NCBI GenBank assembly: GCA_014730235.1
Contig: WJIO01000186.1
Location: 1 to 29,776, forward strand
Source of the DNA: Candidatus Poribacteria bacterium
Lineage (GTDB): Bacteria; Poribacteria; DTPJ01; WJIO01
Reading direction: 5' to 3'
DNA: 29,776 nt
Of this stretch, positions 1 through 29,709 are shown piece after piece. A model generated the notes under the pieces. The model was not told the DNA's origin. It saw nothing but the letters and a program-made list of their open reading frames with translations, and did not search any database. The position numbers and the translations under genes were made by a program. Position 1 is the first letter of the stretch, and each line of letters starts with the position of its first letter.

Positions 1-340
1 ATACTGTATATGTTGATGGTATATAATCACTAAAATGTGAAAGAACCCATGTATTTTCTACTTGGAAAGAAAATGCCTGTAAAGTAAATGAGGACATAAG
101 AAAAGCGAACGCGATAAAAAAAATTAAAAAAAGAGGGTTCTTTCTATAATTAAATAAAAAAATGCTTCCTGATATTAACGCGGTAATATAAAAAACTTGA
201 ATAGGATAATTTATAGAAATTAATGGAAAAATTAATACTCCCAATAATAGCAAAACTAATAGAATTGGATAATTAACTAAACGTTGATTTCCTTTAAACC
301 AATACCTCATATACTCAGCAAAATTATTATTATACCACAT
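1..340 (-). CDS. Partial ORF for a polytopic membrane protein, candidate Wzy/EpsG-like polysaccharide polymerase. Only the N-terminus is in the window; the ORF runs off the left edge.
   Basis: I translated the reverse complement of 1-340 by hand: 113 codons with no stop, starting at ATG (rc of 338-340), with a second in-frame ATG at rc of 308-310. The sequence is MWYNNNFAEYMRYWFKGNQRLVNYPILLVLLLLGVLIFPLISINYPIQVFYITALISGSIFLFNYRKNPLFLIFFIAFAFLMSSFTLQAFSFQVENTWVLSHFSDYIPSTYTV. It is very hydrophobic and aromatic-rich, like Wzy/EpsG. The ORF is absent from the supplied track because it is edge-truncated. An open frame this long is unlikely by chance in AT-rich DNA. It overlaps the wzx 3' end by 11 nt. 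Confidence 0.4.
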   Translation of the reverse strand, partial: MWYNNNFAEYMRYWFKGNQRLVNYPILLVLLLLGVLIFPLISINYPIQVFYITALISGSIFLFNYRKNPLFLIFFIAFAFLMSSFTLQAFSFQVENTWVLSHFSDYIPSTYTV

Positions 341-2905: not shown

Positions 2906-2936
2906 GTAATAACCTCTTAATCAAAATTATTATATA

Positions 2937-3536
2937 CTAATCTATACGTTTAACGTGAGAATCTTTCTTTTCATATTTTTTCTTACAATTATGACATTCA
3001 GCAAATCCATCATCATCAACAGGATTTCCATGACTAAAAATTAGCTTTTCACCACATTCACACATCCAACCGGCTATACGGGTTGCGTTACCATAAACAA
3101 GGGCGTAATCGGGAACATCTTTAGTCACCACAGCTCCTGCACCAACGAAGGCGTATCTTCCAACATTATGGCCACATATTACGGTAGCATTAGCTCCGAT
3201 TGTTGCACCTTCCCTGATGAGTGTTGGGCTGTATTCATCTATGTCCCTGCGTATTTCTGCCCGGGGATTAATTACATTGGTAAAAACCATAGAAGGACCG
3301 CAAAACACGTTATCCTCTATAGTTACCATGTCATAAACTGACACGTTGTTCTGAATTCTTACATTATTGCCTATTTTCGCTTTTCCACTGATAAATACAT
3401 TCTGTCCCAAGACGCAATTTTCACCAATTTGTGCATTACTCATGACATGGCAAAAATGCCATATTTTTGTGCCTTTGCCAATATTTGCGCCTTCATCAAC
3501 TATGGCAGAATCATGAATGAAATATTCGCCGCTCAA
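2937..3536 (-). CDS. Left-handed beta-helix (hexapeptide-repeat) sugar N-acetyltransferase (QdtC/WxcM/PglD-like) with a C-terminal CxC...CxxC zinc-ribbon-like tail
   Basis: 199 aa. Hexapeptide repeats are visible: [52 protein letters not shown]. The C-terminus reads [28 protein letters not shown]. The gene sits next to the DegT aminotransferase, as in N-acetyl-amino-sugar pathways. Confidence 0.8.
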
Positions 3537-3570
3537 TATATACCTCCATCACAGATAAGAGATTTTCAAA

Positions 3571-4173
3571 CTATAAATAACCAAGAGATTTTAACCTTTG
3601 TTTAATTTTTTCTTCCTCTTCAGAATCATAAGCAAGAGATTCTGAAGCTGGGGGAATAAGTCCTGCCAATTCCAAATATCTTATGATTTTCTCGGCACTT
3701 TCTTCTACATTTTCTTTATCTGTGTCCACTATAATTGTCGGATTTTCTGGTTCTTCATACGGGTCTGATATACCAGTGAAGTTTTTTATTTCACCAGACA
3801 AGGCTTTTTTATACATACCCTTTACATCCCTCTCAATACATACTTCCACTGGACATCTTACAAAGACCTCAATGAAATTATCAATCCCGACTTTAATTTG
3901 TTCACGAACTTCACGATATGGGGAGACAAAAGCAGCAATAACAGCCACGCCATTTCTGGAAAGCAGTTTAGCTATGAATCCCATACGACTTATGTGGGTA
4001 TCCCTGTCTTTCTTACTGAATCCTAAGTCCTTGCTTAAGTGAGTCCGAACTTCATCACCATCCAGAGATTCCACGTTAAGGCCTCTGTTCCTTAGTTCTT
4101 TTTCAATTATTTCCGCAATAGTGGTCTTTCCTGAGCACGGAAGACCAGTAAACCATAGAGTAAATCCTGACAT
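3571..4173 (-). CDS. cysC: Adenylyl-sulfate (APS) kinase
   Basis: 200 aa. The P-loop is FTGLPCSGKTTIAEIIE. The motif LDGDEVRTHLSKDLGFSKKDRDTHISRMGFIAKLLSRNGV is characteristic of CysC. Confidence 0.9.
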   Translation of the reverse strand: MSGFTLWFTGLPCSGKTTIAEIIEKELRNRGLNVESLDGDEVRTHLSKDLGFSKKDRDTHISRMGFIAKLLSRNGVAVIAAFVSPYREVREQIKVGIDNFIEVFVRCPVEVCIERDVKGMYKKALSGEIKNFTGISDPYEEPENPTIIVDTDKENVEESAEKIIRYLELAGLIPPASESLAYDSEEEEKIKQRLKSLGYL

Positions 4174-4196
4174 AGTTATATCTCCAGTTGTTGTTA

Positions 4197-5594
4197 TTAA
4201 AAATCAATAACCTTTCCCTGCATATCATCAGGTATAGATATATTCATCAATTTCAAAATTGTAGGAGCGCAGTCCATAACATGGATATCAGTAATTTTAC
4301 CACTTACTTTGCTATTTGGTACGCTCATTATAAACATGCCGTATTGAGCGTGGTTGGCATCATCCGGACCTGTATCGTTTTCAAAGGTATGTATGGTTTT
4401 TAACCCCACACTACCAACCGAACGCCATGAAAGATCGCCAAAATATATTATAAGATCTGGCGGGATACCTTTACAGACTTTATATATATCCTGAGGTTTA
4501 AATACTTTCGTTCCTATGGGATTACCTTTGTCATCTCCCAGGTCTTTGAGCTTTTCTGTCAATTCATCCCTGATTTTTTCATAGTCCATCTGAGGAACAA
4601 TTCCCCTGGGTTCCCTATCTTTTACATTGAGAAAAACTCGGGCGTAATAGCCACCTTCACCCCATGCACGAGTGTTTTCCCAATCAATATTTTCACTAGC
4701 TAGACGGGTTACCTCATCAGGATATTCCTTTAATTTCAGATAACCTTCCTGGATCATCCATTCGTTTATACATATTCCGCCATCCATAGGCTTTACTCCA
4801 TGATCCGATACTACTATAACCGCGGTATCTTCTCCGGCAGTTTCAATGAGGTCACCAGCAATTTCATCGAGATATTCATAGTATTCTCTGGCTATGTCCT
4901 TATATTTTGTGGGTATATAATCCCTGTGGTTTTCGTCAATAAAGCGCCAGAGTCCATGATGAAGCCTATCAGGTCCCATCTCTACCATCATAAAGAAATC
5001 CCAATCACTTGTTGTCATAAGGTGTTTCGCGACTTTATGGCGTTTTTCTGTCATCTCGAATATTTCATTAACGATCTGAGCTTTGTCGTCAGTTCTGAAA
5101 TTTTCTACATCCAGCATATATCCATCAGCTATCCGTTCCACTTCCTGTTTTAATTCCGGAGGATATGTATATTCGCTTTCGGTGCTGGGAGTCAGGAAAG
5201 ATGTTACCATACATCCATTAAGGGGTTTTGGTGGGTAAGTTTGGGGAACTCCGATAATAATGGAGTTTTTGTCGTGTTTTGAAAGAATATCCCAAACTGT
5301 GTTTTCTTTTACCATAGTTGAGTTGGCGATGGACATTCCATCATATGAGTGATCAGGTCTATTTCTAAAACCATAGAAACCTAGAGTTCCGGGATCTTTG
5401 CTGGTCATCATAGACATCCATGCCGGGCATGTAATAGCGGGTATAGTGCTTTCGATTTCTCCATAAATTCCATTATCCATAAGCTTCTTCATATTTGGCA
5501 TATCATCGAGATATTTGTCAAAAACCAATTGAGGCGCGCCACAGTCCCAACCTATTACCAGAACTTTCTTTATTTTCTTTCTTCTTTTAAACAT
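4197..5594 (-). CDS. Alkaline-phosphatase-superfamily protein, type I phosphodiesterase / nucleotide pyrophosphatase-like, soluble. It sits between sat and cysC.
   Basis: 465 aa. The N-terminal core VLVIGWDCGAPQLV...TIPAITCPAWMSMMTS resembles the metal-binding and nucleophile region of the NPP/AlkP fold, and VVSDHG is the conserved DHG metal ligand. The start overlaps the sat stop as TAATG. No TM segment is present. Confidence 0.6.
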   Translation of the reverse strand: MFKRRKKIKKVLVIGWDCGAPQLVFDKYLDDMPNMKKLMDNGIYGEIESTIPAITCPAWMSMMTSKDPGTLGFYGFRNRPDHSYDGMSIANSTMVKENTVWDILSKHDKNSIIIGVPQTYPPKPLNGCMVTSFLTPSTESEYTYPPELKQEVERIADGYMLDVENFRTDDKAQIVNEIFEMTEKRHKVAKHLMTTSDWDFFMMVEMGPDRLHHGLWRFIDENHRDYIPTKYKDIAREYYEYLDEIAGDLIETAGEDTAVIVVSDHGVKPMDGGICINEWMIQEGYLKLKEYPDEVTRLASENIDWENTRAWGEGGYYARVFLNVKDREPRGIVPQMDYEKIRDELTEKLKDLGDDKGNPIGTKVFKPQDIYKVCKGIPPDLIIYFGDLSWRSVGSVGLKTIHTFENDTGPDDANHAQYGMFIMSVPNSKVSGKITDIHVMDCAPTILKLMNISIPDDMQGKVIDF

Positions 5595-6757
5595 TAAGCT
5601 ACCCCTCGGCTTGCCTTCATTAATATCTGAGCAACTTCAGGACGTGTAAATTCTTCCGGTAAGTCTTTACCTTCTGACAGCATTCCCCGTACTTTTGTTC
5701 CACTCAGAAAAACATGTGATTCTTTTCCATGAGGGCAGGTTTTCCCTGTAGCCATGCCGTCACATTCCTTACAGTAGAAGGCGTGTTCAAATTTTAGCGG
5801 TATAATACCTATTTCTTCAGGCTTAAACTCATCAAAAATTTTCTGTGCATCGTAAGTGCCATAATAATTAGCCACACCAGCATGATCTCTACCTACGATA
5901 AAGTGTGTGCATCCGTAATTTTTTCTTGCTATGGCATGGAGGATTGCCTCTTTTGGACCTGCGTATCTCATAGCTGCGGGAAATACCGACATTACTGTGC
6001 GGTTTTTGGGATAATATTTTTCCAGTATTATCCTGTAACATTCTATGCGTACATCGGCAGGAATATCATCTTTTTTTGTTGCCCCTACCAGGGGATGAAG
6101 CAAAAGACCATCCACAGTTTCCAGAGCGCATTTCTGGATATATTCATGAGCCCGGTGTATTGGATTGCGCGTCTGAAAAGCCACAACACTGCTCCAGCCT
6201 TTATAATGGAAAAGAAGCCTTGTTTCCTTTGGGTCAAGCAGCACGCCCTCTATCTCACCATGATCCGGACGGTTAATCATTACGACATTACCGGCCAAAA
6301 GCACATCACCCTTCTCATATAAAGCTGCAACTCCGGGATGGGCAATATCTGTCGTTCCATAAACGACTTGCGCTTCTTTTTCCCTGTCATAATCGTATTT
6401 CTCATCCAGATATAAGACACCCATCACCTCTCCATTTTGGTCACAAAGTGCTACATCGTTATCCAGGGCATATTTACTTGCATCGTCTTTACTTACAGCC
6501 AGAGTTATTGGGATAGTCCAAGGACAGCCGCTTGCCAGTCGGTTATTTTCAAGTACGCTATTATAATCTTTTTGACCCATAAAGCCTTCAAGAGGACTGA
6601 AAGCTCCTATGGAGATCATCTCCAGATCTGAGATTTCCCTCTTATTTAATGTAACTTTTTCCATACCCGGAATCCGTTCAATTAGATAATCCCGAACAGG
6701 CCCTTCACCAATACTGTTGATTAGCTTGCCGCCGTGCGGATCGATCAAATGCTTCAT
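5594..6757 (-). CDS. sat: Sulfate adenylyltransferase (ATP sulfurylase)
   Basis: 387 aa. It contains the diagnostic QTRNPIHRAHE and GRDHAG motifs and an N-terminal PUA-like domain. Confidence 0.9.
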   Translation of the reverse strand: MKHLIDPHGGKLINSIGEGPVRDYLIERIPGMEKVTLNKREISDLEMISIGAFSPLEGFMGQKDYNSVLENNRLASGCPWTIPITLAVSKDDASKYALDNDVALCDQNGEVMGVLYLDEKYDYDREKEAQVVYGTTDIAHPGVAALYEKGDVLLAGNVVMINRPDHGEIEGVLLDPKETRLLFHYKGWSSVVAFQTRNPIHRAHEYIQKCALETVDGLLLHPLVGATKKDDIPADVRIECYRIILEKYYPKNRTVMSVFPAAMRYAGPKEAILHAIARKNYGCTHFIVGRDHAGVANYYGTYDAQKIFDEFKPEEIGIIPLKFEHAFYCKECDGMATGKTCPHGKESHVFLSGTKVRGMLSEGKDLPEEFTRPEVAQILMKASRGVA

Positions 6758-6760
6758 CTA

Positions 6761-8656
6761 TTACCCCTTATGTTTTATACGAGTAAAATTTAAGACAGTG
6801 CCAATAACATTACTTCCGGAATTTTCTAATATCCCCTGGGTATCGTTTACATATTCTCTGTTAGTGGTATCTGCCTTTATCACAAGGATAGTAGCATCAA
6901 CTTTTGAGCCAATAGCTGCTGGGATAGCAGACGATGCCAGAGATTGGGAATCAAAAATTACTATATCGAAATTATTTGTTATATCTTCTAATATGCGATC
7001 AAAATGGGAAGATGAAAAATATGAAGAATTAGTATTGTATTCACTTCTACCTGATGTCATAACGCTTAATCCATCTGTTTCTGTTAAAGTAATTGCATCA
7101 TCCCAATCTGAATTTCCCTCCAGAATATCAAATAATCCCTGTTTCTGGTCTAATTCCATAATCCTGTCTACATCCGGTGTTTTATTATCAGAATCAATCA
7201 GTAATACCTTAAGATCTGACAAAGCAAAGCACAATGCCAGATTTGCAGAAACTGAGGTTTTACCTTCACCGTCCAGAGAACTTGTGACAAGTAAAGTTAA
7301 ACCTTTTGACTTATTCTTTAATATTTCAATTTTTGCCGTTGTTTCTAAATATAGCATATCATAGGAGTTTTTGTAAAGATCATTGAGCTTTCCGGGGGGT
7401 ATTTTATTGATAATTGTTTCTTTTATTTCATGGTGGTTTCTTAGCCTGGGGATAACTCCCAGAACAGGCAGATTCAAAGATTCAGCTAGTGATTTTGGGT
7501 CATGAATTGTTTTATCTGTAAATATTTTAAAGAAGGCAAGAGTTAATCCTAAAAATCCACCGGCCAGAATACTTGCGGCAAATATTATTTTTCTTTTAGG
7601 TTTGCTGGGATATAAAGGTTCTGCCGCTTCTTCTATGATCTCAGTGGTGTTTCGCTGCATTATATGTTGGGCCTTTAACTCTTCGTGCTTTGTTACAAGA
7701 AGACTGTAAACCTGTTGATTAAAAACCACCTCAGCCGCCAATTCAGTCAGACCAAATTGCTTATTATATTTCTCAAAGGCCTTTTCCTCTTCTTCTTTAA
7801 GCCTTTCTCTGGTTTCCTTCAATTGGGCTTTTAAATTTACGACTTTTGGATCACTAGGAGGGTAACTTTTTTTTAACACATCCAGTTCTATTTCCAATTC
7901 CATTACAGCCGATCTGAGCTTTGCAATGGTCTGGGGTACTTCCGGAATCATAAACTTAGAACTATCGCCGCCTATTTGATTTCCCGCACCTATTAATAAA
8001 GGACTAAAAGCAGTTGGGATACCCTCACCTGTTTCATTTTGGTACAGCCGGTTTCTTGAATCTACCAGTTCACCCTTTACTTCCTTAAGTTTATTTTCCA
8101 TTTGTGTGATTAATTCATTCCAGGCTTTTTGTTGAGATTTATTGGCAAAATCTATATACTCAATGGCAACCTGGTCTGTAATTTCTTTTGCTTCCTTGGG
8201 TGTATCCCCTGCCGCTGATATATCTATTAAATTTGTCCTTCCTCTTTGTCTAACTTCAAGGTTTTCCTGAAATTTATTTATAATCATCCGCATGTCCATA
8301 TCGGTGTTTTTTGGCTTCTTATCCAGCCCGAGCTCCTTTATTACCTTTTCTGATATAGTTCTGCTTTTGATTATTTCCACTTCTGTGGTAACATCCCCGG
8401 CCTGTCCGATAGGTAAAAACGCCCCAAGGGCAGCAGCCAACCCACCTCCGGATTGTGTTGGAATCTTTATGACCGCTTTGGATGTATATTGTCTTGGTGT
8501 AACCAGGAGAAATATCAGGGTTGCACTTACAACAATCCCAAAAGGTATAATGATTAACCACTTTCTCCTTAACAATTCGTTCCAATATTCACTTAATCGG
8601 ATTTCCTTTTCTCCAGTATATTCAGGCATTTGACCTGATGGAGATGGTGATTTCAT
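6761..8656 (-). CDS. wzc: Wzc/ExoP-like polysaccharide co-polymerase: an N-terminal Wzz chain-length domain fused to a C-terminal BY-kinase/CapB-like P-loop ATPase. It lacks the C-terminal tyrosine cluster.
   Basis: 631 aa. It has an N-terminal TM segment, a long coiled-coil periplasmic region, then a second TM segment. Walker A is LLVTSSLDGEGKTSVSANLA and Walker A' is VLLIDSD. The C-terminus ...VLNFTRIKHKG has no Tyr-rich tail. Confidence 0.8.
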   Translation of the reverse strand: MKSPSPSGQMPEYTGEKEIRLSEYWNELLRRKWLIIIPFGIVVSATLIFLLVTPRQYTSKAVIKIPTQSGGGLAAALGAFLPIGQAGDVTTEVEIIKSRTISEKVIKELGLDKKPKNTDMDMRMIINKFQENLEVRQRGRTNLIDISAAGDTPKEAKEITDQVAIEYIDFANKSQQKAWNELITQMENKLKEVKGELVDSRNRLYQNETGEGIPTAFSPLLIGAGNQIGGDSSKFMIPEVPQTIAKLRSAVMELEIELDVLKKSYPPSDPKVVNLKAQLKETRERLKEEEEKAFEKYNKQFGLTELAAEVVFNQQVYSLLVTKHEELKAQHIMQRNTTEIIEEAAEPLYPSKPKRKIIFAASILAGGFLGLTLAFFKIFTDKTIHDPKSLAESLNLPVLGVIPRLRNHHEIKETIINKIPPGKLNDLYKNSYDMLYLETTAKIEILKNKSKGLTLLVTSSLDGEGKTSVSANLALCFALSDLKVLLIDSDNKTPDVDRIMELDQKQGLFDILEGNSDWDDAITLTETDGLSVMTSGRSEYNTNSSYFSSSHFDRILEDITNNFDIVIFDSQSLASSAIPAAIGSKVDATILVIKADTTNREYVNDTQGILENSGSNVIGTVLNFTRIKHKG

Positions 8657-9975: not shown

Positions 9976-10088
9976 TATATCCCTAATCTATACTGATCAG
10001 GATATTATAATAAGATACTTAAAGTCAAGTTATTTTCCCTGAAGGTGATCGTTGAAAGGGGAATATATGCTTACTTTTTTCCATTATC

Positions 10089-10248: not shown

Positions 10249-10396
10249 ATTATCAGACTTAACTCTGAAGAAACAAATTTTTTCGTTATATCTCGTTAAA
10301 ATTTTCATTCATTTGGTCAAAAAAAGTAAGCTATATTTAATGCTTATTCGTTATGATTACAAATGAAAACTACATGAATAAAAGGCTTGAAAAGCA

Positions 10397-10425
10397 TTGA
10401 CAAAAACCATGCCAGATGCTATACT
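10397..10425 (+). promoter_or_regulatory. Consensus sigma70 promoter for the LolA-like gene
   Basis: The -35 is TTGACA (10397-10402), the spacer is 17 bp, and the -10 is TATACT (10420-10425). An AGGAGA SD follows at 10442-10447, with the ATG at 10453. Confidence 0.6.
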
Positions 10426-10452
10426 CGTTTTTAGAGATATAAGGAGATAATT

Positions 10453-17106: not shown

Positions 17107-19245
17107 TTATCTCTCTATGGCTTTCATTGCAGCCTGGAAGTGTTCCATATTAATCTTTATCTGTGTATAATCTTTCTCCTGTTCATCTTTGCTTTTCTGG
17201 ATAAATTCCCGGATGGCTATCATTGCCGCCCGTCTGCATACAAATTCTATATCAGCACCTACCCGGTCATCTGTCATTTTAGCCAACTCATCATAATTAA
17301 TGTCATCAGCCAGTGGTTTTTCCCTTGTATGAACTTTGAATATCTCCAAACGGGTTTTTTCGTCAGGTTTTGGCATCTCCATAACCAGATCGAGACGTCC
17401 AGGTCTTAAGAGGGCTTCATCAATGAGATCACGACGGTTAGTGGCTGCAAGCACCACAACACCCCGAAGTTCCTCGATGCCGTCCATCTCAGTTAAAAGC
17501 TGGCTTATTACACGTTCTGAGACATGGGAATCGGATGCTCCGGAACGCGGTGGAGCGATGGCGTCCAGTTCATCCAGAAATAATACGCAGGGGCTGGATT
17601 GTCTTGCTTTCTGGAAAACCTCTCTTATTCCTTTTTCAGATTCGCCGACCCACTTTGAGATTAACTCAGGTCCTTTGATTGATATGAAATTTGCTTGACT
17701 CTCGGTGGCAACTGCCTTGGCCAGCAGTGTTTTTCCTGTTCCCGGCGCGCCGTGAATTAAAACACCTTTTGTTGGTGATATGTTGGCATATTTGAATGCA
17801 TCCGCGTATTTCATAGGCCATTCGACAGCTTCCTGGAGTTCCTGCTTGATCTCCTCAAGGCCACCCACATCCTCCCAATGCACATTGGGTACTTCGGTAA
17901 ATACTTCCCTGATGCCCGATGGTTCTATTTCGTTGAGGGCATCCATGAAATTATCCATGGTAACGTTAAGATCATTCAGAATTTCATAAGGGATGGAATC
18001 TATATCAAAATCTATTTTAGGGATAATTGTTCTAAGGGCTGTCATAGCTGCTTCCCGACTTAAAGCCTCTAAATCTGCTCCTGTATAACCATGAGTTATC
18101 TCAGCCATTTTATCCAGGTCAATATCATCAAACAAAGGCATTCCACGTGTGTGAATTTCCAGGATTTGTAATCTAGCCGGGGCATCGGGTATACCAATAA
18201 CGATCTCCCGGTCAAAGCGTCCTGGGCGGCGCAGGGCTGGATCAATCATGTTAGGTAGATTTGTTGCTCCAACTACTACAATCTGTCCCCGGTCTTTCAG
18301 ACCGTCCAGAAGGGCCAAAAGCTGTGCTACAACGCGTTTTTCTACATCTCCTACTACTTTTTCCCGCTTTGGAGCTATGGAATCTATTTCATCCAGAAAT
18401 ATAATGCTGGGTGCTTTTTGCTTTGCCTGTTCAAATATTTCCCTTAGCTGTCTTTCACTCTCACCATAAAACTTATGTATTACCTCTGGGCCACTTATAG
18501 AAAAGAAAGCTGCATCAGTTTCGTTAGCCACAGCCCGGGCTAGCAGTGTTTTACCACATCCGGGAGGTCCATGAAGCAAAACACCCTTGGGCGGCTCAAT
18601 CCCTAATTTCTGGAACAACTGGGGATGCCTTAAAGGTAATTCTATCATCTCCCGAACTCTTTGTATGGCTTTATCCAAACCACCAATGTCTTCATATGCA
18701 ATACCAGCTTTATTTTGTCCTCCTTCTCTTTGACCTTCTATATTAATTCTTGTATCAGGATGAATAAGGACTATATCATCAGGGGATGTTTTTGACACAA
18801 TAAATTCCTGGAACCTGGAACCAAAGAGGGTGGCTCTGACTACATCACCGGATACTACAGGTAAATCATTAAGTAGTTTGCCCACATATTTTGTGTCCCG
18901 TTGTTGTGAAAAACGGGTTTTCCCGGAAGCCTGAGTGAGATATATTAGCTTTGCTGGTTGGGCTGAAACTGGAGACAGTTTGACCTTTTCACCGATTCCT
19001 GTATCGGCATTACGACGGGTAAGGCCGTCAATCTGAATGATTTCTTTACCTCGATCATCAGGATACGCAGGCATTACCTTAGCGACTGTCATTCGTTTAC
19101 CCCGAATACTGATAATATCCCCTACAGAAACGTCAAGTTTTTTCATATCTTCGGGATCCATCCGGGCAAGACCTTTACCTGCATCCCGATTTAATCCTTC
19201 TGATACTTTAAGATTAATCGTATTTGGCTCTGTTCCTGCACCCAT
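17107..19245 (-). CDS. Cdc48/VAT/p97-type double-ring AAA+ ATPase (N-domain + D1 + D2), last gene of the gvp-linked operon
   Basis: 712 aa. The Cdc48-N domain is [41 protein letters not shown]1 Walker A is [20 protein letters not shown] with DEID Walker B. D2 Walker A is [20 protein letters not shown] with DELD Walker B. Both SRH regions are present. It is TAAATG-coupled to the upstream 189-aa ORF. The SD is AGGAG. Confidence 0.9.
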
Positions 19246-19815
19246 TTAATGATTCTCCTTTAGATTTTTTACCGATTTATAGATCTTGATGTCGTCAACC
19301 AATTTATCAGTCACTTTATGAAGAGCTCCCATAAACAAAAGGCCAGTTTCACCATCCTTCAGAGTCGAGTCAATCCTACAGGCTATATATTCATCCCGGC
19401 GTTTCATCAGATCGTCGTATTTGTTTGTTGAACCAACTACTCCCATGTTCTTAAGTCTTTCCCTTTCCTCTAGCAGTAGCTCTGATGCTTCTGTTCCAAC
19501 TATTGATGCTCCTTTTTGGATTAACTCCAGCAGTAGCTTATAATTTCTGTTGCCATCTTCTGCAAGGGCCTGGACTATTTTAAGTTCCTGATTACATACA
19601 GGTAGACTGTCCTGATAGATTTTTGCTTTTTTGTAATTAATAGGTAAATTGAGCAGTGTATTCCTGATTTCTGTCCAGAAATTTTCAACAGCCTTTATAT
19701 GTTCTTCCCATTTAGATTCACCATATCTAGCTGTGTATTGTTTTCTGGCTTCGGATAAATGGTTTCCCAGGTCTTCAGGTGTATGAACAATAGGTATATA
19801 AAGCAATTCTCGCAT
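19246..19815 (-). CDS. Hypothetical 189-aa protein between the last gvpF/L and cdc48-like. It is translationally coupled on both sides, with no family recognised.
   Basis: The start is 2 nt after the gvpF/L stop and is preceded by GGAG. The stop abuts the cdc48 ATG. The protein is predicted alpha-helical and soluble (MRELLYIPIVHTPEDLGNHLSEARKQYTARYGESKWEEHIKAVENFWTEI...). Confidence 0.5.
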   Translation of the reverse strand: MRELLYIPIVHTPEDLGNHLSEARKQYTARYGESKWEEHIKAVENFWTEIRNTLLNLPINYKKAKIYQDSLPVCNQELKIVQALAEDGNRNYKLLLELIQKGASIVGTEASELLLEERERLKNMGVVGSTNKYDDLMKRRDEYIACRIDSTLKDGETGLLFMGALHKVTDKLVDDIKIYKSVKNLKENH

Positions 19816-21931: not shown

Positions 21932-21950
21932 GCCCCGCATATAGCGGGGC
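21932..21950 (-). terminator. GC-rich hairpin followed by a U/A-rich tract on the minus-strand transcript, between gvpJ and gvpH. Candidate terminator or attenuator.
   Basis: GCCCCGC-ATATA-GCGGGGC, a 7-bp all-GC stem. Downstream on the minus strand is GCUAUUAUUAUAUAUAAUU, which also holds a TATAAT -10-like element for gvpH. Confidence 0.4.
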
Positions 21951-22008
21951 TTAAGCACGCGTTACACAATTTTTAGGAGAGAGACATGCAAAGCGTGCTG
22001 ACGATTGC

Positions 22009-22347
22009 TTAACTGGTTTTTTCTAATTCAGATATACGTTTTTTAAGAGCTTCTATTTCAGCTTCTTTATCTTCAAGTTGGTGTGCTTTTACTTCTTGTT
22101 CCAACCTTTGTTTGCGTTCCGCCATAGCACTTAAAAACGGATTACCTTCCCACCAATCTATACCCATCTCTTTGGCCCTTTCCACTGATGCCAGAAGCAA
22201 TCTAATATTGATTGTCAAAAGCTCAACTTCCAGAAGCTTAATACGGATATCGCCAGCAATAACAACGCCCTTATCCAATACTCTCTCAAGGATTTCCACC
22301 AGGTTATTTGCGTTGGTGGAATGAACAATTTGTTCTTGGTGTCCCAC
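22009..22347 (-). CDS. gvpJ: GvpJ (GvpA-family gas vesicle protein with extended coiled-coil C-terminus)
   Basis: 112 aa. The core LVEILERVLDKGVVIAGDIRIKLLEVELLTINIRLLLASVERAKEMGIDWW matches the GvpA/J/M fold. Confidence 0.85.
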   Translation of the reverse strand: MGHQEQIVHSTNANNLVEILERVLDKGVVIAGDIRIKLLEVELLTINIRLLLASVERAKEMGIDWWEGNPFLSAMAERKQRLEQEVKAHQLEDKEAEIEALKKRISELEKTS

Positions 22348-22361
22348 AGACCCATTCCCCT

Positions 22362-22691
22362 CTAATCAAGTAAATTTCCTAAAGGTCCTAAATCAATGTT
22401 TAGCTCTTCTATTTCAAAATATTCTTTCAACTCAATAATTTTTTCCTCTAACTTCATAAGAGTAGTACCGAGTCGCTCAATTTCTTCATCAGTTAGAGTT
22501 CCGCCTTCTATTCTTCTAATAGCCTGTTTTTCCAGCAACTGCCTGATAAGCTCTACCAGAGCCAGAACCAACTTTACAAGTCCTTGTTCTACTCCCTCTG
22601 GATCTACCTTCACCTTTGTAGGCTTTTTAACTGGTTCAAGGTTATTCGCAAAATCATCCAGGAATTTTGATGTTATCTCAGGTCGATTCAC
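22362..22691 (-). CDS. gvpK: GvpK gas vesicle protein
   Basis: 109 aa. LVKLVLALVELIRQLLEKQAIRRIEGGTLTDEEIERLGTTLMKLEEKIIELKEYF matches the conserved GvpK core. Confidence 0.85.
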   Translation of the reverse strand: MNRPEITSKFLDDFANNLEPVKKPTKVKVDPEGVEQGLVKLVLALVELIRQLLEKQAIRRIEGGTLTDEEIERLGTTLMKLEEKIIELKEYFEIEELNIDLGPLGNLLD

Positions 22692-22911
22692 TGATTATTT
22701 CCTCATCCATTGCTTCAATAAGTGTTTCAACAGAACTTACCAGAACACTCAGACCTATATACAGAAGTTCCACACCAGCGACAGATATGCAAATTTCTCC
22801 AGTTAATACAGCCCCTTTATTTAATACGCGATCCAGAAGTTCACACAAAGAAATCCTTTGTTCCAATGATATATCATCATTATCATCTGGAAATTCATTA
22901 ATGATGTCCAT
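22678..22911 (-). CDS. gvpM: GvpA-family minor paralogue (GvpM/GvpS-like)
   Basis: 77 aa. The GvpA-like core is LCELLDRVLNKGAVLTGEICISVAGVELLYIGLSVLVSSVETL. The N-terminus is acidic. Confidence 0.75.
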   Translation of the reverse strand: MDIINEFPDDNDDISLEQRISLCELLDRVLNKGAVLTGEICISVAGVELLYIGLSVLVSSVETLIEAMDEEIISEST

Positions 22912-22930
22912 ATATTACCTCAAGCTTTAA

Positions 22931-23242
22931 TTACTCAACAATTTCCTCAAGATCCATTCTTTTACGCATGCTGCGGCGTTCATAATTAATAACATCACCA
23001 TCTTCGTCAAGTTCAACTTCGTATATACCCAATACATCCAGTGTATCAGGTATTGCTTTTCTCTCTATAAATTCAATGGTGATATTCCAACCATCTTCAG
23101 TTCTTGATGCTCCAACCACACTTGAAAGCTCCAATCCTATTAGCATTTGGAGTTGTTCAACAGCGTTGTTTATTGCATCCTTCAGTTTTAGACGAACCGT
23201 TTTATTCTCATGTAAGGTATTTATTTCTTCAATCTCAGCCAT
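22931..23242 (-). CDS. gvpO: GvpO-like gas vesicle synthesis protein
   Basis: 103 aa. Size, position and the ...LSSVVGASRTEDGWNITIEFIERKAIPDTLDVLGIYEVELDEDGDVINYER pattern resemble GvpO (PF05800). The call rests on recall, not a search. Confidence 0.55.
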   Translation of the reverse strand: MAEIEEINTLHENKTVRLKLKDAINNAVEQLQMLIGLELSSVVGASRTEDGWNITIEFIERKAIPDTLDVLGIYEVELDEDGDVINYERRSMRKRMDLEEIVE

Positions 23243-23296
23243 AAATTTCTCCTTGATGATTGTGTTATTTGGACATAGAATATTTTTATTATATCA

Positions 23297-23920
23297 TTAA
23301 TCCGATGACAGATCAATTAACTCCAGTTCTAATTTTTTTCTACCAAAAACCAATGCTTCTTTTACGGTAGGCATGAGTAAATCAATATTTCTACCATTGT
23401 TTTTTTTCATGGCTGATCCTGTATCACATGCAAAAAAGTACCTGTTAATTTCCGGAGCATACAGGACAGAACCATATGGAATAACACCGGGATCAACAGC
23501 AGCAACACCCATACCTGCCGGAATGAGGTTAGATGTCAATCCATCGTTAAATGGAACGCAGCTATCTTTGGGATCATAGGCAGTAACATTAAAATAACCT
23601 AAAGATTTCCGTTTTCCCTTTTTGGATAAAGTAGATATAGCTGCACGATATGCCTTTATTTCACCTTTAAGGAGTGATGATTTTATAGCGTATTCATTTA
23701 TCATCTCTTTTAGTCTTGTATGTTCCTGAGTCATTTGTGTTTGGTAATCATGGCTAACCCGCATGTATGTAAACAGGCATGATAATCCCATTGCGGTAAA
23801 AATAGCAAATGACAATACACCAAAGTAGACAAACAATTTAGCACCTTGTTTCTTAAATATATCTTTTATAAGAGAATAAGCCCTACCTGTATAAGAAGAA
23901 TTACAGGCTAACGTTTCCAT
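23297..23920 (-). CDS. Membrane-anchored 3D-domain protein (MltA/YorM-like double-psi beta-barrel, probable peptidoglycan-binding or lytic domain) embedded in the gvp operon
   Basis: 207 aa. One N-terminal TM segment (LFVYFGVLSFAIFTAMGLSCLF) and a coiled linker precede the 3D domain TAYDPKDSCVPFNDGLTSN...GVAAVDPGVIPYGSVLY...FACDTGSAMKKNNGRNIDLLMPT, which carries the conserved Asp residues. Confidence 0.6.
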   Translation of the reverse strand: METLACNSSYTGRAYSLIKDIFKKQGAKLFVYFGVLSFAIFTAMGLSCLFTYMRVSHDYQTQMTQEHTRLKEMINEYAIKSSLLKGEIKAYRAAISTLSKKGKRKSLGYFNVTAYDPKDSCVPFNDGLTSNLIPAGMGVAAVDPGVIPYGSVLYAPEINRYFFACDTGSAMKKNNGRNIDLLMPTVKEALVFGRKKLELELIDLSSD

Positions 23921-23924
23921 CGCC

Positions 23925-24161
23925 TTAACCTCCGCCTTTTTGAGCAGCTATCTCTTCCAAAATATCCACAAGCTCTTCTTCTTTTTCTTCAAATTCCTCT
24001 TCGCTGATTTCACCTTTTTCCAATTGTAAATAAAGATTTCTTAAATCTTCTCTTATCTTATCTTCATTAAAAAGCTCTTCTTTTGCCATTTCGTCAATTT
24101 TCTTAGCTATAAATACCGGTAATTTTATTGGTGCCAGTAAAATATTATCAAGAATACCCAT
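23925..24161 (-). CDS. gvpG: GvpG gas vesicle protein
   Basis: 78 aa. MGILDNILLAPIKLPVFIAKKIDEMAKEELFNEDKIREDLRNLYLQLEKGEISEEEFEEKEEEL matches the GvpG pattern (MFLLDDLL...A...ELYD...I...L..L...E.GEISE.E). Confidence 0.7.
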   Translation of the reverse strand: MGILDNILLAPIKLPVFIAKKIDEMAKEELFNEDKIREDLRNLYLQLEKGEISEEEFEEKEEELVDILEEIAAQKGGG

Positions 24162-24166
24162 GACTA

Positions 24167-24952
24167 CTACCTTTCGAGATGCAATTCCAGTCTGTCAACA
24201 AAACTGAATGGAGGCCAGGGACCGTCAAGTTTGAGGGAATACTCATTTCCCATATTTTCGCCTAGTCTATCAATGGCCTTTTCCAGATCAGAACGCATGT
24301 CTTTTTCAATTAGCAAAGTTGCATTAGTTATTGTTGAATCATTGTTTATTTCTTCAACCCGGGCTTCTCCCGGAGGAAGATGGGTTAAAATATCATTGGT
24401 TATCTGTTCTCTGGTTTTTTCCATTCTCTTGTGGAAATAAGTACCAAAATCAATAATTTCCTTACGTCCCAGGGATTTACCCTCGCCCATGTATTTATCC
24501 CGAATGGATCTGAGTTTATCATCCCTGTCAATGAAATACTTAAACACATCATCAACATTCCATTCAACCTTTAATCCCATTTCAACTTTGTTCTTAAGTC
24601 TTTCAAGCTCCTGTCGAATAGTTTGGTAACTTTTACGCAGAGCAATATTAACCTCACCTGCATCTCTAGCTATCTGACCGAATCTGGCAGGAATTGTGGT
24701 AAAAAGCTCTGATGCCTTGCGTATCACTTCATGGTATGGAGCCAGATTTTTCCTGAGAAGTTTAATGGAATCAACACGAGGATAATCACTTACCAGAGCA
24801 CCAATATCTTCATAATGAATGCTATGGACAACTTTATTATCCAGACCTATAGGACCGAAGTTACTTTCCTGATCTGAAAGAATAACAGCGTAAAACAATT
24901 TTCCATAATGGGAGCTTCCGTTATTTACTTTTCTTGTAACTCGCTTTCTCAT
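24167..24952 (-). CDS. gvpF: GvpL/GvpF-family gas vesicle protein (paralogue 2)
   Basis: 261 aa. The C-terminal signature is [13 protein letters not shown]. It has a 4-nt ATGA overlap with the upstream gene. Confidence 0.8.
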
Positions 24953-25986
24953 CGGATCAATAACCTCTCTGCAATAAAAACTTTTTCAACTTCATCTCTT
25001 GAGAACGAAAAAACAGCATTTTTTCCATCTTCAAGAGAACTGCTATAACTATGACAATATGACTCTAAAATTTTATAGGCTTCGTCTATTTCTTTAAAAA
25101 GCTTATATGATTCCTTGTCTCCATCCGTTTTGTCAGGATGGTATTTCAACGCAAGTCTTCGATAGGATGCCTTAATATCATCCAGATGTGCTTTTTCCGG
25201 GAGTTCCAGCCTTCTACGGGCTTTATCAATTAATTCATAATTGCCTTTTTTGAATTCAAGTGGTGCAAAACTATAGGGAGGAATTGGGCCAATATATTTA
25301 AAACTGAGGTAAGATTCATTTTCATTACCAAGTTCCTCCATAGCCTTATCGAATTCTGCTTCATCCTGTCTATTGATGAGATAGCTCCTGTTAAAAATAA
25401 TTGAGTCATCGGCTGATCTACCTTCTGATGAATCAATAGATACATTGGATAATTTGTCGTGAATAGAATCAATAATCTGGCGTTTTAGTTTTTCTGCTGA
25501 CTGGAACAGTAGTTTACCAAGCTGAATTTTATCATTAATGTCAATAGATTTCACAGCCTCTTTAAGCCAGTTTTCATCTTTACTTATATTCTGTAAAACT
25601 GTATCCAGATCCCAGAAAAGCTGAACTGCAAATTCAGCTTTATTGCGAAGGTTATTCAGTGCCCATTTAATATGTATGTAGGAATTGGCCATGAATTCCT
25701 CAACCTGTTCTTCCTGATCCACCATAATTCCAAATCTAAGCGGGAGTATAGTGAGGTTTTGGAATATATTTATATTTATCTGTTGGTAAGATGCAAGAAG
25801 GACTTTAAGTTCAGCTTCATGCATTCCGGGCTGTTCAGCAATAGCAGGATCTATTTTTCTGGTGATAGTTGTAAGATCTTTATAATTTATGCTATGTATC
25901 GTCTCAGGAATGGAAATATATTCATTTTCAAATTTGGTAGTTTCAACGATACAATGAAGCAAGAATGTATTTAATTTTTCTGTCAT
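24949..25986 (-). CDS. GvpL/GvpF-family protein fused to a C-terminal DnaJ J-domain (paralogue 1)
   Basis: 345 aa. The GvpF/L core ends at the signature [16 protein letters not shown] canonical J-domain follows: [59 protein letters not shown], with the HPD tripeptide present. Confidence 0.8.
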
Positions 25987-26132
25987 AATAGGTTAACCTT
26001 TCCAGCAAATTTACAGATCAGTATTTAATTGTAAACTACTATAATTATATATAAAAGGGTGTGACATACTTACGTCACTTTAGTCCTGGTATTTTGTATT
26101 TTGAAATTTAGTCGGGTAAATACAAAAGATTC

Positions 26133-26434: not shown

Positions 26435-26719
26435 TTACTGTTTTAAGATTATTAGTTTTCTATTCCCAATTGTATTTGTAAACCTGACATTTACAACATC
26501 ATTGGGTTTTAGATCCATAAATGACAGCAAGTTATCTGGAATAACAAGTCTATTTGATGAATCCAAACGGGCTAATCCTCTTATAATACCTATAGACCTT
26601 GAAATATTACCATTCAGTTTATGATGACGATTATTAAAACACCTTATATACCTGAAATGTTTTATTTTGCCCGATGTTTTTATATTTCGTCTTGTTTTAA
26701 GTTTAATAATATTTCGCAT
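26435..26719 (-). CDS. Small protein with a C-terminal AbrB/MazE/SpoVT-like swapped-hairpin DNA-binding domain. The start codon is uncertain.
   Basis: The C-terminal 50 aa SIGIIRGLARLDSSNRLVIPDNLLSFMDLKPNDVVNVRFTNTIGNRKLIILKQ aligns by eye to the AbrB N-domain (GIVRKVDELGRVVIPIELRRTLGIAEKDALEIYVDDEKIILKK). The basic N-terminal 40 aa may be a mis-called extension. There are 3 nt between the upstream ORF stop and its start. Confidence 0.45.
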   Translation of the reverse strand: MRNIIKLKTRRNIKTSGKIKHFRYIRCFNNRHHKLNGNISRSIGIIRGLARLDSSNRLVIPDNLLSFMDLKPNDVVNVRFTNTIGNRKLIILKQ

Positions 26720-26722
26720 AGC

Positions 26723-27046
26723 TTAATATTTTAAAATAACCTCAGCCTTTTTTTCTGATTCATTATCTTTTGCGTTTTGATTTTGTTTATTTATTTTTTC
26801 TCGAACGCCCAGTCTCTCCATAAGTTCATTTTCTTCCTCATCAATTTCTTCCAGGCGTTTTGAGATCCTGTCTATTCTTTTTTCCCAGTTATTTTTTTCC
26901 TTGTTTAGTCTCTGTCTTTCACGACCAAGACCAGCCAGTTCGTTGTAAATATCATATTCATCATAGTGATTCCGCATCCGCAAAGCAGTTTTAATGCGTT
27001 TTGTGGTATTAGGAATATCTCTTATTCCTCTTATTCTTCTTTCCAT
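26723..27046 (-). CDS. Hypothetical 107-aa charged coiled-coil protein downstream of gvpN
   Basis: The ORF has operon context only. Its sequence is MERRIRGIRDIPNTTKRIKTALRMRNHYDEYDIYNELAGLGRERQRLNKEKNNWEKRIDRISKRLEEIDEEENELMERLG... I recognise no family. Confidence 0.4.
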   Translation of the reverse strand: MERRIRGIRDIPNTTKRIKTALRMRNHYDEYDIYNELAGLGRERQRLNKEKNNWEKRIDRISKRLEEIDEEENELMERLGVREKINKQNQNAKDNESEKKAEVILKY

Positions 27047-27171: not shown

Positions 27172-28053
27172 TTATCCAATTATATTTTCAATTGCTTTCT
27201 TTACCTGACCACTGGTATCTGAACCTTTACATATAACATCCAGACATGTTTCAATGAAAACCCTATCATCAGTTTTCACTTTGACTTCCTGCTTATTAAC
27301 AATATCGGCAATCATGATTGATGCTCTGATAGTGGGGTCAAAACTTATATCCTGGTTTTCCCTTATATGCCTGACAAGTTCCACTATTTTATTTGATTCT
27401 TTTTCAGGCATACCTGATTTTGCCGATGTAATAGCAGCTTCAGTTTGGGCATCATAACATCCCAGGTTAATGGTAATCATTCTATCCAGTAAAGCGCTCT
27501 GAGGAGTATAAACCCCCGCATATTCATCAGGATTACTGGTGAATATAGCCCGGAATTCCGAATGAATATTGATGTAACTTTCACCGTATCTGCTTTCCGG
27601 TAATACCAGGAGTCTTTCTTCCAAAGCCGACAAAAGAACATTGTTAGCTTCTGCCCTAGAACGGGAAAATTCATCATAAACGAGTGTATATCCATTTTTG
27701 CATGCTGTGGTTAGTCTTTGATCAACCCAGACATTGGATACATTTTCCTCAGTTTTTACAACAGAATGAACAAAGTTGTCCACCAGACGTTTTGAAACAA
27801 TACCCTTATCATTACCCAGTAGATCTGAAGAACCAAATTCTTCATCGCCATATATAATCATCACCGGGCGACCAATTACACCAGCCAGGTGCATAGCTAA
27901 AGTGGTTTTACCCGTCCCTGCAGGGCCGCTAAGATGGACAGGGTAACCAGCTTTTAGATATGCCAAACAGCGCCGACATATACTCTTTATTAACGGAGTA
28001 ACAACGAAATCCTTTCCCGGTTCAAGACGAAGAACAGTCGCCTGTTGTGCCAT
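27172..28053 (-). CDS. gvpN: GvpN (MoxR/CbbQ/NirQ-type AAA+ ATPase of gas vesicle clusters)
   Basis: 293 aa. Walker A is VHLSGPAGTGKTTLAMHLAG and Walker B is LVYDEFSRS. It follows the gvpC-like gene. Confidence 0.9.
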   Translation of the reverse strand: MAQQATVLRLEPGKDFVVTPLIKSICRRCLAYLKAGYPVHLSGPAGTGKTTLAMHLAGVIGRPVMIIYGDEEFGSSDLLGNDKGIVSKRLVDNFVHSVVKTEENVSNVWVDQRLTTACKNGYTLVYDEFSRSRAEANNVLLSALEERLLVLPESRYGESYINIHSEFRAIFTSNPDEYAGVYTPQSALLDRMITINLGCYDAQTEAAITSAKSGMPEKESNKIVELVRHIRENQDISFDPTIRASIMIADIVNKQEVKVKTDDRVFIETCLDVICKGSDTSGQVKKAIENIIG

Positions 28054-28081: not shown

Positions 28082-29242
28082 TTAACTCTTTGGATAATAA
28101 AGATTATCAATTTTTTCGACTTTATTTTCATCAACTAAAGGTTTTATAACAGATATAAGGCCTCTCCAATCAACACCCATTTCATTTCCAATATCAACCA
28201 GCTTAATGCCTTCAGGATGTTTACCAATCATTTCCAGAACCTGATCTTCTGTGGAAATATTTTCTTCCTCTTCTTTTTCAGGTGAAGCTTCTTCAGAAGT
28301 CGGTTCTTCGACTTCATCCTGCGGGGTTTCAGGAGAAGGTTCCTCATCCTCATATTCTTCCTCTTCCGATTCAGTTTTTGAAGGTGGTTCTTCAACTTCA
28401 TCATCTTCGGAGGAATCTTCCTGATCTAAAGCCTCTTCGATAACGGTAGTTGTTTCCGTCGTTTCTACCACAGAGGAAAACAATTCTATCCATATATCCC
28501 TTGCTTCTTTTCTGTCAGAAGCTATGCTATTTAGCATTTCATTTATGGCTTTGCTTCGGGCTTCTTCATCAGCAGAAACCTTTTCTCTCAGATTCTTGGA
28601 CATTTCCTGAATATCAGATCTGACACCTTTCATGAATGAATCAACCTCATCTATGAGGCTTTTGGCAGCTTCTTTTCGGGCTTTCTCATCTGAGGCCATC
28701 TTTTCCTGTAAGGCCCTGGATGTCTCTGCCATTTCCGATTTCATATCATCCATAAAGGATTTTACCTCATCCCTGAGCTGATTAACTGCATCGCTTCTTT
28801 GTTTTCTATCGGAAGCAATTTTTTCTTCCAGGGATTTGGACATTTGCTGTAGATCTGATTTTATACTTTCTTTGAAGTTTTTAACTTCGTCCATCAACTG
28901 TTTTGTTGCCTCACTTCGGGCAGCTTTATCGCTGGCCATTTTATCCTGAAGTTCTTTTGACATATCCTGAAGGTCATTTCTGACTTCATCCAGGAATACC
29001 TTAACGTTATCCATAAGCTCTTTTGAAGCCTTCATACGACTTGCTTTATCTTCGGATATCTTATCAGCCAGAGCTTTGGACATATCCTGACGCTCTAATT
29101 GGAAACGTTCTATGAGGTTATGAGTATCAGATTTCATCTCACTGACTTTGACGTGACGATCCTCGGTGGAGGCCCTACGGTTTTCAGCAGATGCTTTTAT
29201 ATCCTCTACCAGATTCCGCATTCCATTACTCAATTCACCCAT
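28082..29242 (-). CDS. gvpC: GvpC-like repetitive gas-vesicle surface (scaffold) protein candidate: about 6 tandem 40-41-aa amphipathic repeats, an acidic E/D/S/P-rich linker and a ~55-aa C-terminal globular tail
   Basis: 386 aa. Repeats such as DMSKELQDKMASDKAARSEATKQLMDEVKNFKESIKSDLQ, QMSKSLEEKIASDRKQRSDAVNQLRDEVKSFMDDMKSEMAE and TSRALQEKMASDEKARKEAAKSLIDEVDSFMKGVRSDIQE have the same period. Its position between gvpA and gvpN matches the canonical gvpA-gvpC-gvpN order. Confidence 0.6.
   Translation of the reverse strand: MGELSNGMRNLVEDIKASAENRRASTEDRHVKVSEMKSDTHNLIERFQLERQDMSKALADKISEDKASRMKASKELMDNVKVFLDEVRNDLQDMSKELQDKMASDKAARSEATKQLMDEVKNFKESIKSDLQQMSKSLEEKIASDRKQRSDAVNQLRDEVKSFMDDMKSEMAETSRALQEKMASDEKARKEAAKSLIDEVDSFMKGVRSDIQEMSKNLREKVSADEEARSKAINEMLNSIASDRKEARDIWIELFSSVVETTETTTVIEEALDQEDSSEDDEVEEPPSKTESEEEEYEDEEPSPETPQDEVEEPTSEEASPEKEEEENISTEDQVLEMIGKHPEGIKLVDIGNEMGVDWRGLISVIKPLVDENKVEKIDNLYYPKS
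28460..29215. repeat. Intragenic tandem DNA repeats of ~120-123 bp encoding the 40-41-aa GvpC-like repeats
   Basis: Periodicity is seen at the protein level, and at the DNA level as recurring ...GACATnTCCTG...TTTnAnnTCATC... blocks. Confidence 0.65.
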
Positions 29243-29490: not shown

Positions 29491-29709
29491 TTATGCAGGA
29501 ACAGCGGCGGTAGCGGTTAGACCAACGGCTTCTGCATATTTCAGGTATGTGTCAACTGAGGCAACTACGACGCGAGCTTCAACAGCCAGTATTTCGATAC
29601 CGACCAATGATACTCTTGCCCAAGCATCTACCACAATACCTTTGTCAAGAATGCGATCTACAACTTCTGCCAAACTACTTGAATCCATTGTCTTCTGTAC
29701 TGAAGCCAT
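29491..29709 (-). CDS. gvpA: GvpA, major gas vesicle structural protein
   Basis: 72 aa. [52 protein letters not shown] is near-identical to the canonical GvpA core. A perfect SD GGAGG (rc of 29719-29723) lies 9 nt upstream of the ATG. Confidence 0.95.

Follow-up and report, generated by a model that had tools for sequence, protein, structure and literature searches.

We analysed a 29,776-nt stretch (the window) of Candidatus Poribacteria contig WJIO01000186.1 (assembly GCA_014730235.1), which carries a gas-vesicle (gvp) gene cluster on its minus strand. Between gvpG and gvpO, on the same strand, lies an ATG-start open reading frame (ORF) of 207 codons plus stop, whose product is 100% identical to GenBank MBD3182396.1 ('hypothetical protein GF312_08895 [Candidatus Poribacteria bacterium]'), an entry from a metagenome-assembled genome. 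The 3D domain was the only Pfam match of this protein, and none was found to a Gvp family, whereas its neighbours all matched Gvp models. We read the protein as an inner-membrane-anchored lytic transglycosylase that would be co-expressed with gas-vesicle assembly genes and would act on the sacculus; taken as a whole, this reading has about an even chance of being correct.

The ORF is a genuine gene and not a chance reading frame, because it is preceded by a GGAGG Shine-Dalgarno sequence, has about 60 close homologues and shows ratios of nonsynonymous to synonymous substitution rates (dN/dS) of 0.12-0.27. The homologues, retrieved by a database search, were all metagenomic and shared 45-68% identity with the window protein.

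Domain, fold and catalytic residues

The Pfam 3D model (PF06725) matched residues 140-198, corresponding to profile positions 3-67 of 72, with a score of 39.9 bits (E = 4.8e-10). This is above the gathering cut-off of 23.8 bits, and the 3D domain named in a first-pass annotation of this DNA is thus present. In NCBIfam, the protein gave only local matches below threshold, to the C-terminal 3D regions of SpsC and of the Ent cell-wall-binding proteins of Bacillus. The SpsC equivalog (NF058633) scored 26.9 bits against a cut-off of 280, with the match limited to residues 141-202, which places the protein outside that family.

A profile built from 36 homologues matched Bacillus subtilis YuiC in the PDB (E = 4e-6). 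The HMMER alignment placed D143, D166 and D180 of the window protein on D129, D151 and D162 of YuiC (spacing of 22 and 11 residues in YuiC), which correspond to D261, D297 and D308 of MltA. In alignments of 25 and 36 homologues, D166, D180 and T113, the last belonging to a T-A-Y motif, were invariant, and D143 was conserved in at least 90% of the sequences. In YuiC, D162 (MltA D308) is the catalytic carboxylate, D151 (MltA D297) is a ligand of the -2 sugar, T91 orients the catalytic Asp, and a 1,6-anhydro product has been demonstrated (PMC4499186). Proteins of the YuiC type have also been tied to stationary-phase survival (PMC4499186).

The AlphaFold model (AF2; mean predicted local distance difference test, pLDDT, 76.6) consists of a single long helix (residues 8-101) followed by a β-barrel (residues 103-203). 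The modelled barrel has a double-psi β-barrel fold that can be superposed on MltA and YuiC. The top structural matches were MltA enzymes, and the N-domains of CDC48/NSF ATPases were among the weaker ones; a whole-chain Foldseek search recovered these families again, at weak scores. By analogy with YuiC and MltA, the window protein is very probably an extracytoplasmic peptidoglycan lytic transglycosylase of the MltA/YuiC type.

The protein is MltA-like in fold and is not an MltA orthologue, because it has 207 residues, a single barrel without an inserted domain, and a tail and transmembrane (TM) helix instead of a lipoprotein signal. The label 'MltA-like' given in the first-pass annotation therefore fits the fold and the Asp residues, and the domain itself is a minimal YuiC/Sps-like version, not that of the two-domain MltA lipoprotein.

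Topology and architecture

The most hydrophobic 19-residue window (Kyte-Doolittle) spans residues 29-47, with a mean of 1.93, and can be extended to about residue 53; nothing comparable occurs elsewhere in the chain. This agrees with the single N-terminal TM segment proposed earlier. The 15 residues preceding the segment carry +4/-1 charges and the 15 following it +1/-1, and most of 20 relatives show the same bias. In three relatives (P0055, P0056 and L095, the last at about 2306-3499), a bactofilin domain (90.8 bits) lies N-terminal to the TM-stalk-3D module; these fused proteins are 42-44% identical to the window protein in the homologue alignment. Such a fusion would constitute a cytoskeleton-tethered wall enzyme in a single polypeptide. 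Other relatives carry soluble N-terminal extensions of 130-190 residues. Because of the flanking charges, and because bactofilin, a cytoplasmic polymer, is N-terminal in relatives, a bitopic N-in/C-out arrangement with the barrel in the periplasm is favoured. The contig also encodes LolA (10453-11154), which suggests a diderm organism. A RimO gene on this contig has its closest named relatives in metagenome-assembled genomes likewise labelled Candidatus Poribacteria.

Two other interpretations of the hydrophobic segment were considered. A cleaved signal peptide was rejected: an n-region of 28 residues precedes a hydrophobic stretch of about 25, and no small-x-small cleavage motif comes after it. 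A releasable anchor of the signal-anchor-release (SAR) type, considered in view of the phage copies described below, is not favoured, as the helix is strongly hydrophobic (Kyte-Doolittle 1.9-2.4).

Within the TM helix, G34, G45 and F50-T51-Y52 are conserved in at least 90% of the family, and T51 is invariant. This unusual conservation hints at a specific intramembrane contact. The stalk that follows the helix would be about 70 Å long if straight, as reckoned at 1.5 Å per residue from the model.

Operon context

The 3D gene is separated from gvpG by 4 nt (23921-23924) and from gvpO by 54 nt (23243-23296), exactly as first annotated. We scanned the minus strand for terminators and detected hairpin-plus-T sites only at 26154-26061 and 21950-21932. 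Both lie outside the block running from the gvpF/L-dnaJ fusion to the second gvpJ-like gene, and no terminator-like site was found inside it (about 26060 to 21950), which makes a single transcription unit plausible. Co-transcription of the 3D gene with its gvp neighbours, asserted in the first-pass annotation from the small gaps, is consistent with those gaps and with the uninterrupted block, and we regard it as plausible rather than established. Positions of the gene, its parts and the surrounding cluster are listed in Table 1.

A promoter-like site just before gvpO (23316-23288) was dropped from consideration, as it was not kept in the aligned intergenic regions of five other clusters. In that alignment, only the Shine-Dalgarno sequence and the start codon were conserved.

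Table 1. Features of the 3D-domain gene and of the gvp cluster around it, in window coordinates.
Feature	Position	Strand	Basis
Whole ORF, 207 aa plus stop; membrane-anchored 3D-domain (MltA/YuiC-type) protein	23297..23920	-	ORF list; Pfam 3D; identity to MBD3182396.1
Residues 1-28, short net-positive N-terminal tail, probably cytoplasmic; family consensus METLPTRIFSLLEEIF	23837..23920	-	Charge count
Residues 29-53, single transmembrane helix (signal anchor)	23762..23836	-	Kyte-Doolittle; AF2 helix, pLDDT 87-94
Residues 54-101, predicted continuous α-helical stalk, about 48 residues	23618..23761	-	AF2/DSSP helix 8-101
Residues 102-207, double-psi β-barrel 3D domain, putative lytic transglycosylase	23300..23617	-	
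T113 codon, invariant T-A-Y at barrel start, candidate equivalent of YuiC T91	23582..23584	-	Homologue invariance
D143 codon, aligned with YuiC D129/MltA D261; Asn in phage copy P0039 and in P0054	23492..23494	-	HMMER alignment; PMC4499186
D166 codon, aligned with YuiC D151/MltA D297, invariant	23423..23425	-	HMMER alignment; PMC4499186
D180 codon, aligned with catalytic Asp (YuiC D162/MltA D308), invariant in 25 and 36 homologues	23381..23383	-	HMMER alignment; PMC4499186
Shine-Dalgarno GGAGG, 8 nt 5' of the ATG of the 3D gene, within the final gvpG codons	23929..23933	-	Direct sequence reading
gvpA	29491..29709	-	Pfam
Repeat protein in GvpC position	28082..29242	-	Placed between gvpA and gvpN
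gvpN	27172..28053	-	Pfam
Two small ORFs between gvpN and GvpF/L-DnaJ	26723..27046, 26435..26719	-	ORF list; no Pfam match
Putative transcription unit, gvpF/L-DnaJ to second gvpJ-like gene, with terminator-like hairpins at both ends (26078-26061 and 21950-21932)	21932..26078	-	Pfam and terminator scan
GvpF/L-DnaJ fusion	24949..25986	-	Pfam
GvpF/L	24167..24952	-	Pfam
gvpG, directly upstream of the 3D gene	23925..24161	-	PF05120, 66.4 bits
gvpO, directly downstream of the 3D gene	22931..23242	-	PF05800, 87.7 bits
GvpA/J-type (gvpJ-like), first	22678..22911	-	Pfam
gvpK	22362..22691	-	Pfam
GvpA/J-type (gvpJ-like), second	22009..22347	-	Pfam
Hsp20-like gene and two more GvpF/L genes, after the second gvpJ-like gene		-	Pfam
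189-aa ORF without Pfam match	19246..19815	-	ORF list
CDC48-type AAA ATPase	17107..19245	-	Pfam

Recurrence in related gvp clusters

The first-pass annotation had asked whether the gene is conserved in the gvp loci of relatives. We found it in six further distinct clusters; it is absent from two others, and most of the family lies outside gvp clusters, as described below. The order gvpF/L-gvpG-3D-gvpO-gvpJ-gvpK recurs in L006, L007, L008 (and L009) and L106, and L101, a cut contig, retains 3D-gvpO-gvpJ-gvpK. The 3D proteins of these clusters are 57-60% identical to the window protein over their full length, and the L101 protein is 72% identical over its 87 C-terminal residues. The neighbouring proteins have diverged to a similar extent (GvpG, 59-64% identity; GvpO, 53-57%). 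The gaps between gvpG and the 3D gene in these clusters range from an overlap to 60 nt. For the pairs in which dS could still be estimated, dN/dS was 0.27 (L008 versus L106), 0.16 and 0.12; synonymous sites were otherwise saturated. These estimates show that the gvp-linked copies have evolved under purifying selection.

In the L092 gvp cluster (2439-7756), a family member that resembles the chromosomal type is located after gvpO. This cluster is rearranged, with long gaps around gvpO and a transposase-like helix-turn-helix (HTH) ORF (6176-6703, minus strand) after the second gvpJ. It may represent a second, independent recruitment of a 3D gene into a gvp cluster; because of the unusually long intergenic gaps and the transposase-like ORF, a rearrangement or a mis-assembly is also possible. 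As a separate observation, the Hsp20-like gene of L092 is fused to an N-terminal HTH segment.

The G+C content of the window is 37.5%, compared with 45-51% in all related gvp contigs. The organism of the window is a compositional outlier among those that share this type of gvp cluster.

Copies outside gvp clusters

The family is small: only 14 cluster representatives (50% identity, of 1.84 billion) reached E = 1e-30, compared with 7,433 matches at E = 0.001 for the generic 3D domain. In a syntenic chromosomal set (L002, L003, L091 and L096), the family gene adjoins genes for an aminotransferase and an AP endonuclease, and further chromosomal contexts without gvp genes were found in L090/L098, L093/L094, L110 and L112. 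A search of genome contigs with the single protein found no relative. An alignment-based search of the same kind of contigs, using a generic pattern, returned Firmicute 3D-domain genes, and none of the 80 loci kept held a close relative.

Two phage contigs, L001 and L005 (identical to L103, IMG/VR UViG_3300009034_000171), each encode a full-length tail-TM-stalk-3D homologue at 10001-10606. These homologues are 53-57% identical to the window protein and lie between the genes for the large terminase subunit and a T4-type portal. One phage copy has Asn in place of the first Asp. In a neighbour-joining (NJ) tree, the phage copies nest within the bacterial chromosomal group and are not basal. Searches of PHROGs and INPHARED yielded only generic 3D-domain matches from Firmicute phages, with 36-47% identity over 30-56% of the protein, and these are uninformative about the present subfamily. 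The terminases of L001 and L005 are 79% identical to each other, and multiple Mom-like genes adjoin the 3D homologue on these contigs.

Proposed mechanism and its alternatives

We propose that the window protein is a bitopic inner-membrane protein comprising a cytoplasmic tail (residues 1-28), a TM helix (29-53), a stalk of about 48 residues and a periplasmic minimal MltA-type barrel of the YuiC/Sps-like kind. The stalk would place the barrel about as far from the inner membrane as the sacculus lies. There, by analogy with YuiC and MltA, the barrel would cut peptidoglycan glycan strands, using D180 as catalytic acid/base, and leave 1,6-anhydro-muropeptide ends. The gene would be translated from a polycistronic message shared with gvpF/L, gvpG, gvpO, gvpJ and gvpK; because of this shared message, the enzyme would be made during gas-vesicle assembly. 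It could then loosen or remodel the sacculus while rigid gas-filled structures occupy cell volume. Alternatively, the trigger may be physiological, with wall remodelling accompanying the entry of the cell into its vesicle-producing state. That the protein has a role tied to gas-vesicle formation is a tentative proposal, to which we give somewhat less than an even chance.

Several observations weigh against such a role, or against parts of the mechanism. Gas vesicles are cytoplasmic and function in many bacteria that have no such gene. About two thirds of the family members with readable context are not near gvp genes. Not all closely related clusters carry the gene: in L113 (766-1280), gvpG and gvpO are 11 nt apart, and the available 11 kb contain no 3D gene. 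Its relationship to the window cluster is as close as that of the 3D-bearing clusters (GvpF/L, 74%; GvpG, 62%; GvpO, 61%; GvpK, 73% identity). In the distant CDC48-type cluster L114, gvpG and gvpO are likewise adjacent, without a 3D gene. In the NJ tree, the gvp-linked copies grouped with a bootstrap value of only 111/200, and the group included P0014, a copy not flanked by gvp genes on its short contigs; we do not claim a separate, robust paralogue clade on this basis. Only six alignment positions separate the gvp-linked from the other copies, four of them in the stalk and none at the active site, and this search for distinguishing residues gave no evidence of functional divergence. Finally, the loop of residues 119-132 is poorly defined in the AlphaFold model (pLDDT <50).

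Because gvpG and gvpO are adjacent without a 3D gene in L113 and L114, the 3D gene is, as judged by comparison of these clusters, an accessory insertion into an ancestral gvpG-gvpO junction and not a core gvp gene. The association is recurrent, lineage-restricted and dispensable in a sister cluster. In L113, the gvp cluster is followed by genes for several PAS/GAF histidine kinases and response regulators.

The strongest alternative is an ordinary peptidoglycan-remodelling enzyme of this lineage, whose gene entered the gvpG-gvpO junction once and has been retained by operon inertia. It would act on the wall like its chromosomal paralogues and have no vesicle-specific role. The family members outside gvp clusters have the same architecture and active site, the family has been mobile enough to reach phage contigs, L113 and L114 show that gvpG-gvpO adjacency is viable, and the six mostly stalk-located positions are the only gvp-specific signature. 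However, the gene has stayed intact, in the same place and under purifying selection in lineages whose synonymous sites are saturated, and the gaps to gvpG have remained tight. The L092 copy, located elsewhere in its gvp cluster, also suggests repeated association if it is not an assembly artefact. We consider simple carriage of this kind rather unlikely, although it comes nearest of the alternatives to our proposal of a vesicle-linked wall enzyme.

A more specific version of a vesicle-linked role would make the protein a transmembrane coupler between gas vesicle and cell wall. The conserved tail and the unusually conserved TM helix would bind either to a Gvp protein or to the surface of the vesicle, in the way that, structurally, the bactofilin domain does in the fused relatives, and peptidoglycan cleavage would be directed to the places where vesicles assemble or press on the envelope. 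We know of no interaction between the window protein and any Gvp protein, and we regard this version as improbable.

Still less probable is a phage-derived function in lysis or release, in which a membrane-tethered muralytic enzyme would promote autolysis or wall weakening, for example to release vesicles or cell contents from buoyant cells. It would account for the full-length homologues between terminase and portal on the two viral contigs, of which one is an IMG/VR entry; the 3D domain also matches PHROG families that hold phage cell-wall enzymes, and 3D domains are present in the diffocin baseplate hub-hydrolase. However, the phage copies nest inside the chromosomal group of bacteria, a placement more readily explained by phage capture of a host gene. 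Moreover, no holin or other lysis genes adjoin the window 3D gene, as judged from the ORF list and Pfam, and a constitutively lytic protein would be costly in an organelle-assembly operon.

Least probable, by a small step, is a non-enzymatic structural or assembly factor whose barrel faces the cytoplasm or whose helix binds the hydrophobic face of the vesicle wall: double-psi β-barrels also form the protein-binding N-domains of CDC48/NSF ATPases, which gave some of the weaker structural matches, and the gvp cluster itself encodes an ATPase of the CDC48 type. Against this, all residues for glycan cleavage are conserved, the same architecture occurs at many loci without gvp genes, the bactofilin fusions indicate a cytoplasmic N-terminus and not a cytoplasmic barrel, the charge bias favours an N-in orientation, and the best structural matches are MltA enzymes and not CDC48 N-domains. 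The 'moonlighting structural role' suggested in the first-pass annotation is disfavoured by the same conservation of catalytic residues.

Comparison with known systems and significance

Specialised lytic transglycosylases are encoded in the gene clusters of several cellular machines, namely FlgJ for flagella, VirB1 for type IV secretion and EtgA for type III secretion. The window gene resembles them in that an enzyme that cleaves peptidoglycan shares its locus, and presumably its expression, with the genes of a large structure. In contrast to the window protein, these enzymes adopt lysozyme-like or SLT folds, and the structures for which they open the wall span the envelope; because gas vesicles stay in the cytoplasm, this rationale does not apply to them. 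Bactofilin-associated peptidoglycan hydrolases also exist. In the bactofilin-TM-3D fusions, a cytoplasmic structure would position the wall enzyme, whereas the window protein has a 28-residue tail in place of the bactofilin domain.

MltA of Escherichia coli is an outer-membrane lipoprotein of about 365 residues whose barrel carries an inserted second domain. The window protein shares 17% identity with MltA (PDB 2AE0, 2PI8) over the aligned part, and differs in its length of 207 residues, the missing inserted domain and its inner-membrane-type helix. Its likeness to the Firmicute proteins of the YuiC/SpsC group (PDB 4WJT, 4WLI, 4WLK; PMC4499186) extends over only about 60-90 residues. For YuiC, a cleaved signal peptide is predicted and the extensions are short, whereas the window protein has an anchor that appears uncleaved, a 28-residue tail and a stalk of about 48 residues. 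The hosts also differ, YuiC being from a Firmicute and the window protein from an apparently diderm, uncultivated lineage, and YuiC is not known to be linked to gas-vesicle genes, unlike the window gene inside its gvp operon. In the literature, we found no report of the tail-TM-stalk-barrel architecture or of a 3D/MltA-type enzyme in a gvp context; the terms co-occurred only in unrelated passages.

Gas vesicles are regarded as purely cytoplasmic, self-assembling protein organelles. Their accessory genes are the least understood and limit the transfer of gvp clusters to new hosts, for example as acoustic reporter genes. The intact catalytic residues and the purifying selection in several diverged clusters suggest that wall remodelling and vesicle production are coupled in one lineage or more, possibly for reasons of cell volume, shape, turgor or stationary-phase physiology. 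If so, the cell envelope would join the factors that gas-vesicle formation must negotiate, and the 3D gene would provide a simple, testable accessory gene. Were the protein a coupler between vesicle and wall, it would provide the first example of sacculus remodelling steered by a protein organelle of the cytoplasm, and could be an accessory factor that matters for heterologous gas-vesicle expression. Even if the gene is only carried along in the operon, a 'hypothetical protein' becomes a defined subfamily with tail, TM helix, helical stalk and minimal MltA barrel, which also occurs fused to bactofilin and on phage contigs.

Other features of the gvp cluster and the window

The protein in the GvpC position (386 residues) contains five 40-residue repeats (residues 31-230), with an autocorrelation peak at 40 far above all other lags. 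The repeats are followed by an acidic linker and a small C-terminal globular part. TRF detected no repeat at the DNA level in this gene, and the homologues in L006 and L008 share only 35-38% identity.

The double-AAA ATPase (CDC48_N, CDC48_2 and two AAA domains) ends the gvp cluster and is additional to the usual GvpN. It is 75% identical in L006 and 56% identical in the distant cluster L114. The GvpF/L protein with the C-terminal DnaJ J-domain (56.1 bits) is kept as a fusion in L006, L007, L008, L092 and L106. The nearest named relative of the window GvpO is from Methanoregula (41%). The three ORFs without a Pfam match, encoding 107, 94 and 189 residues (in the order of Table 1), are kept in related clusters at 33-55% identity.

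Upstream of the gvp region, a polysaccharide and sulfation block occupies 330..8656 on the minus strand. It encodes a Wzz-type tyrosine kinase, ATP sulfurylase, APS kinase, a phosphodiesterase/sulfatase-like protein, a hexapeptide acyltransferase, a DegT aminotransferase and a flippase.

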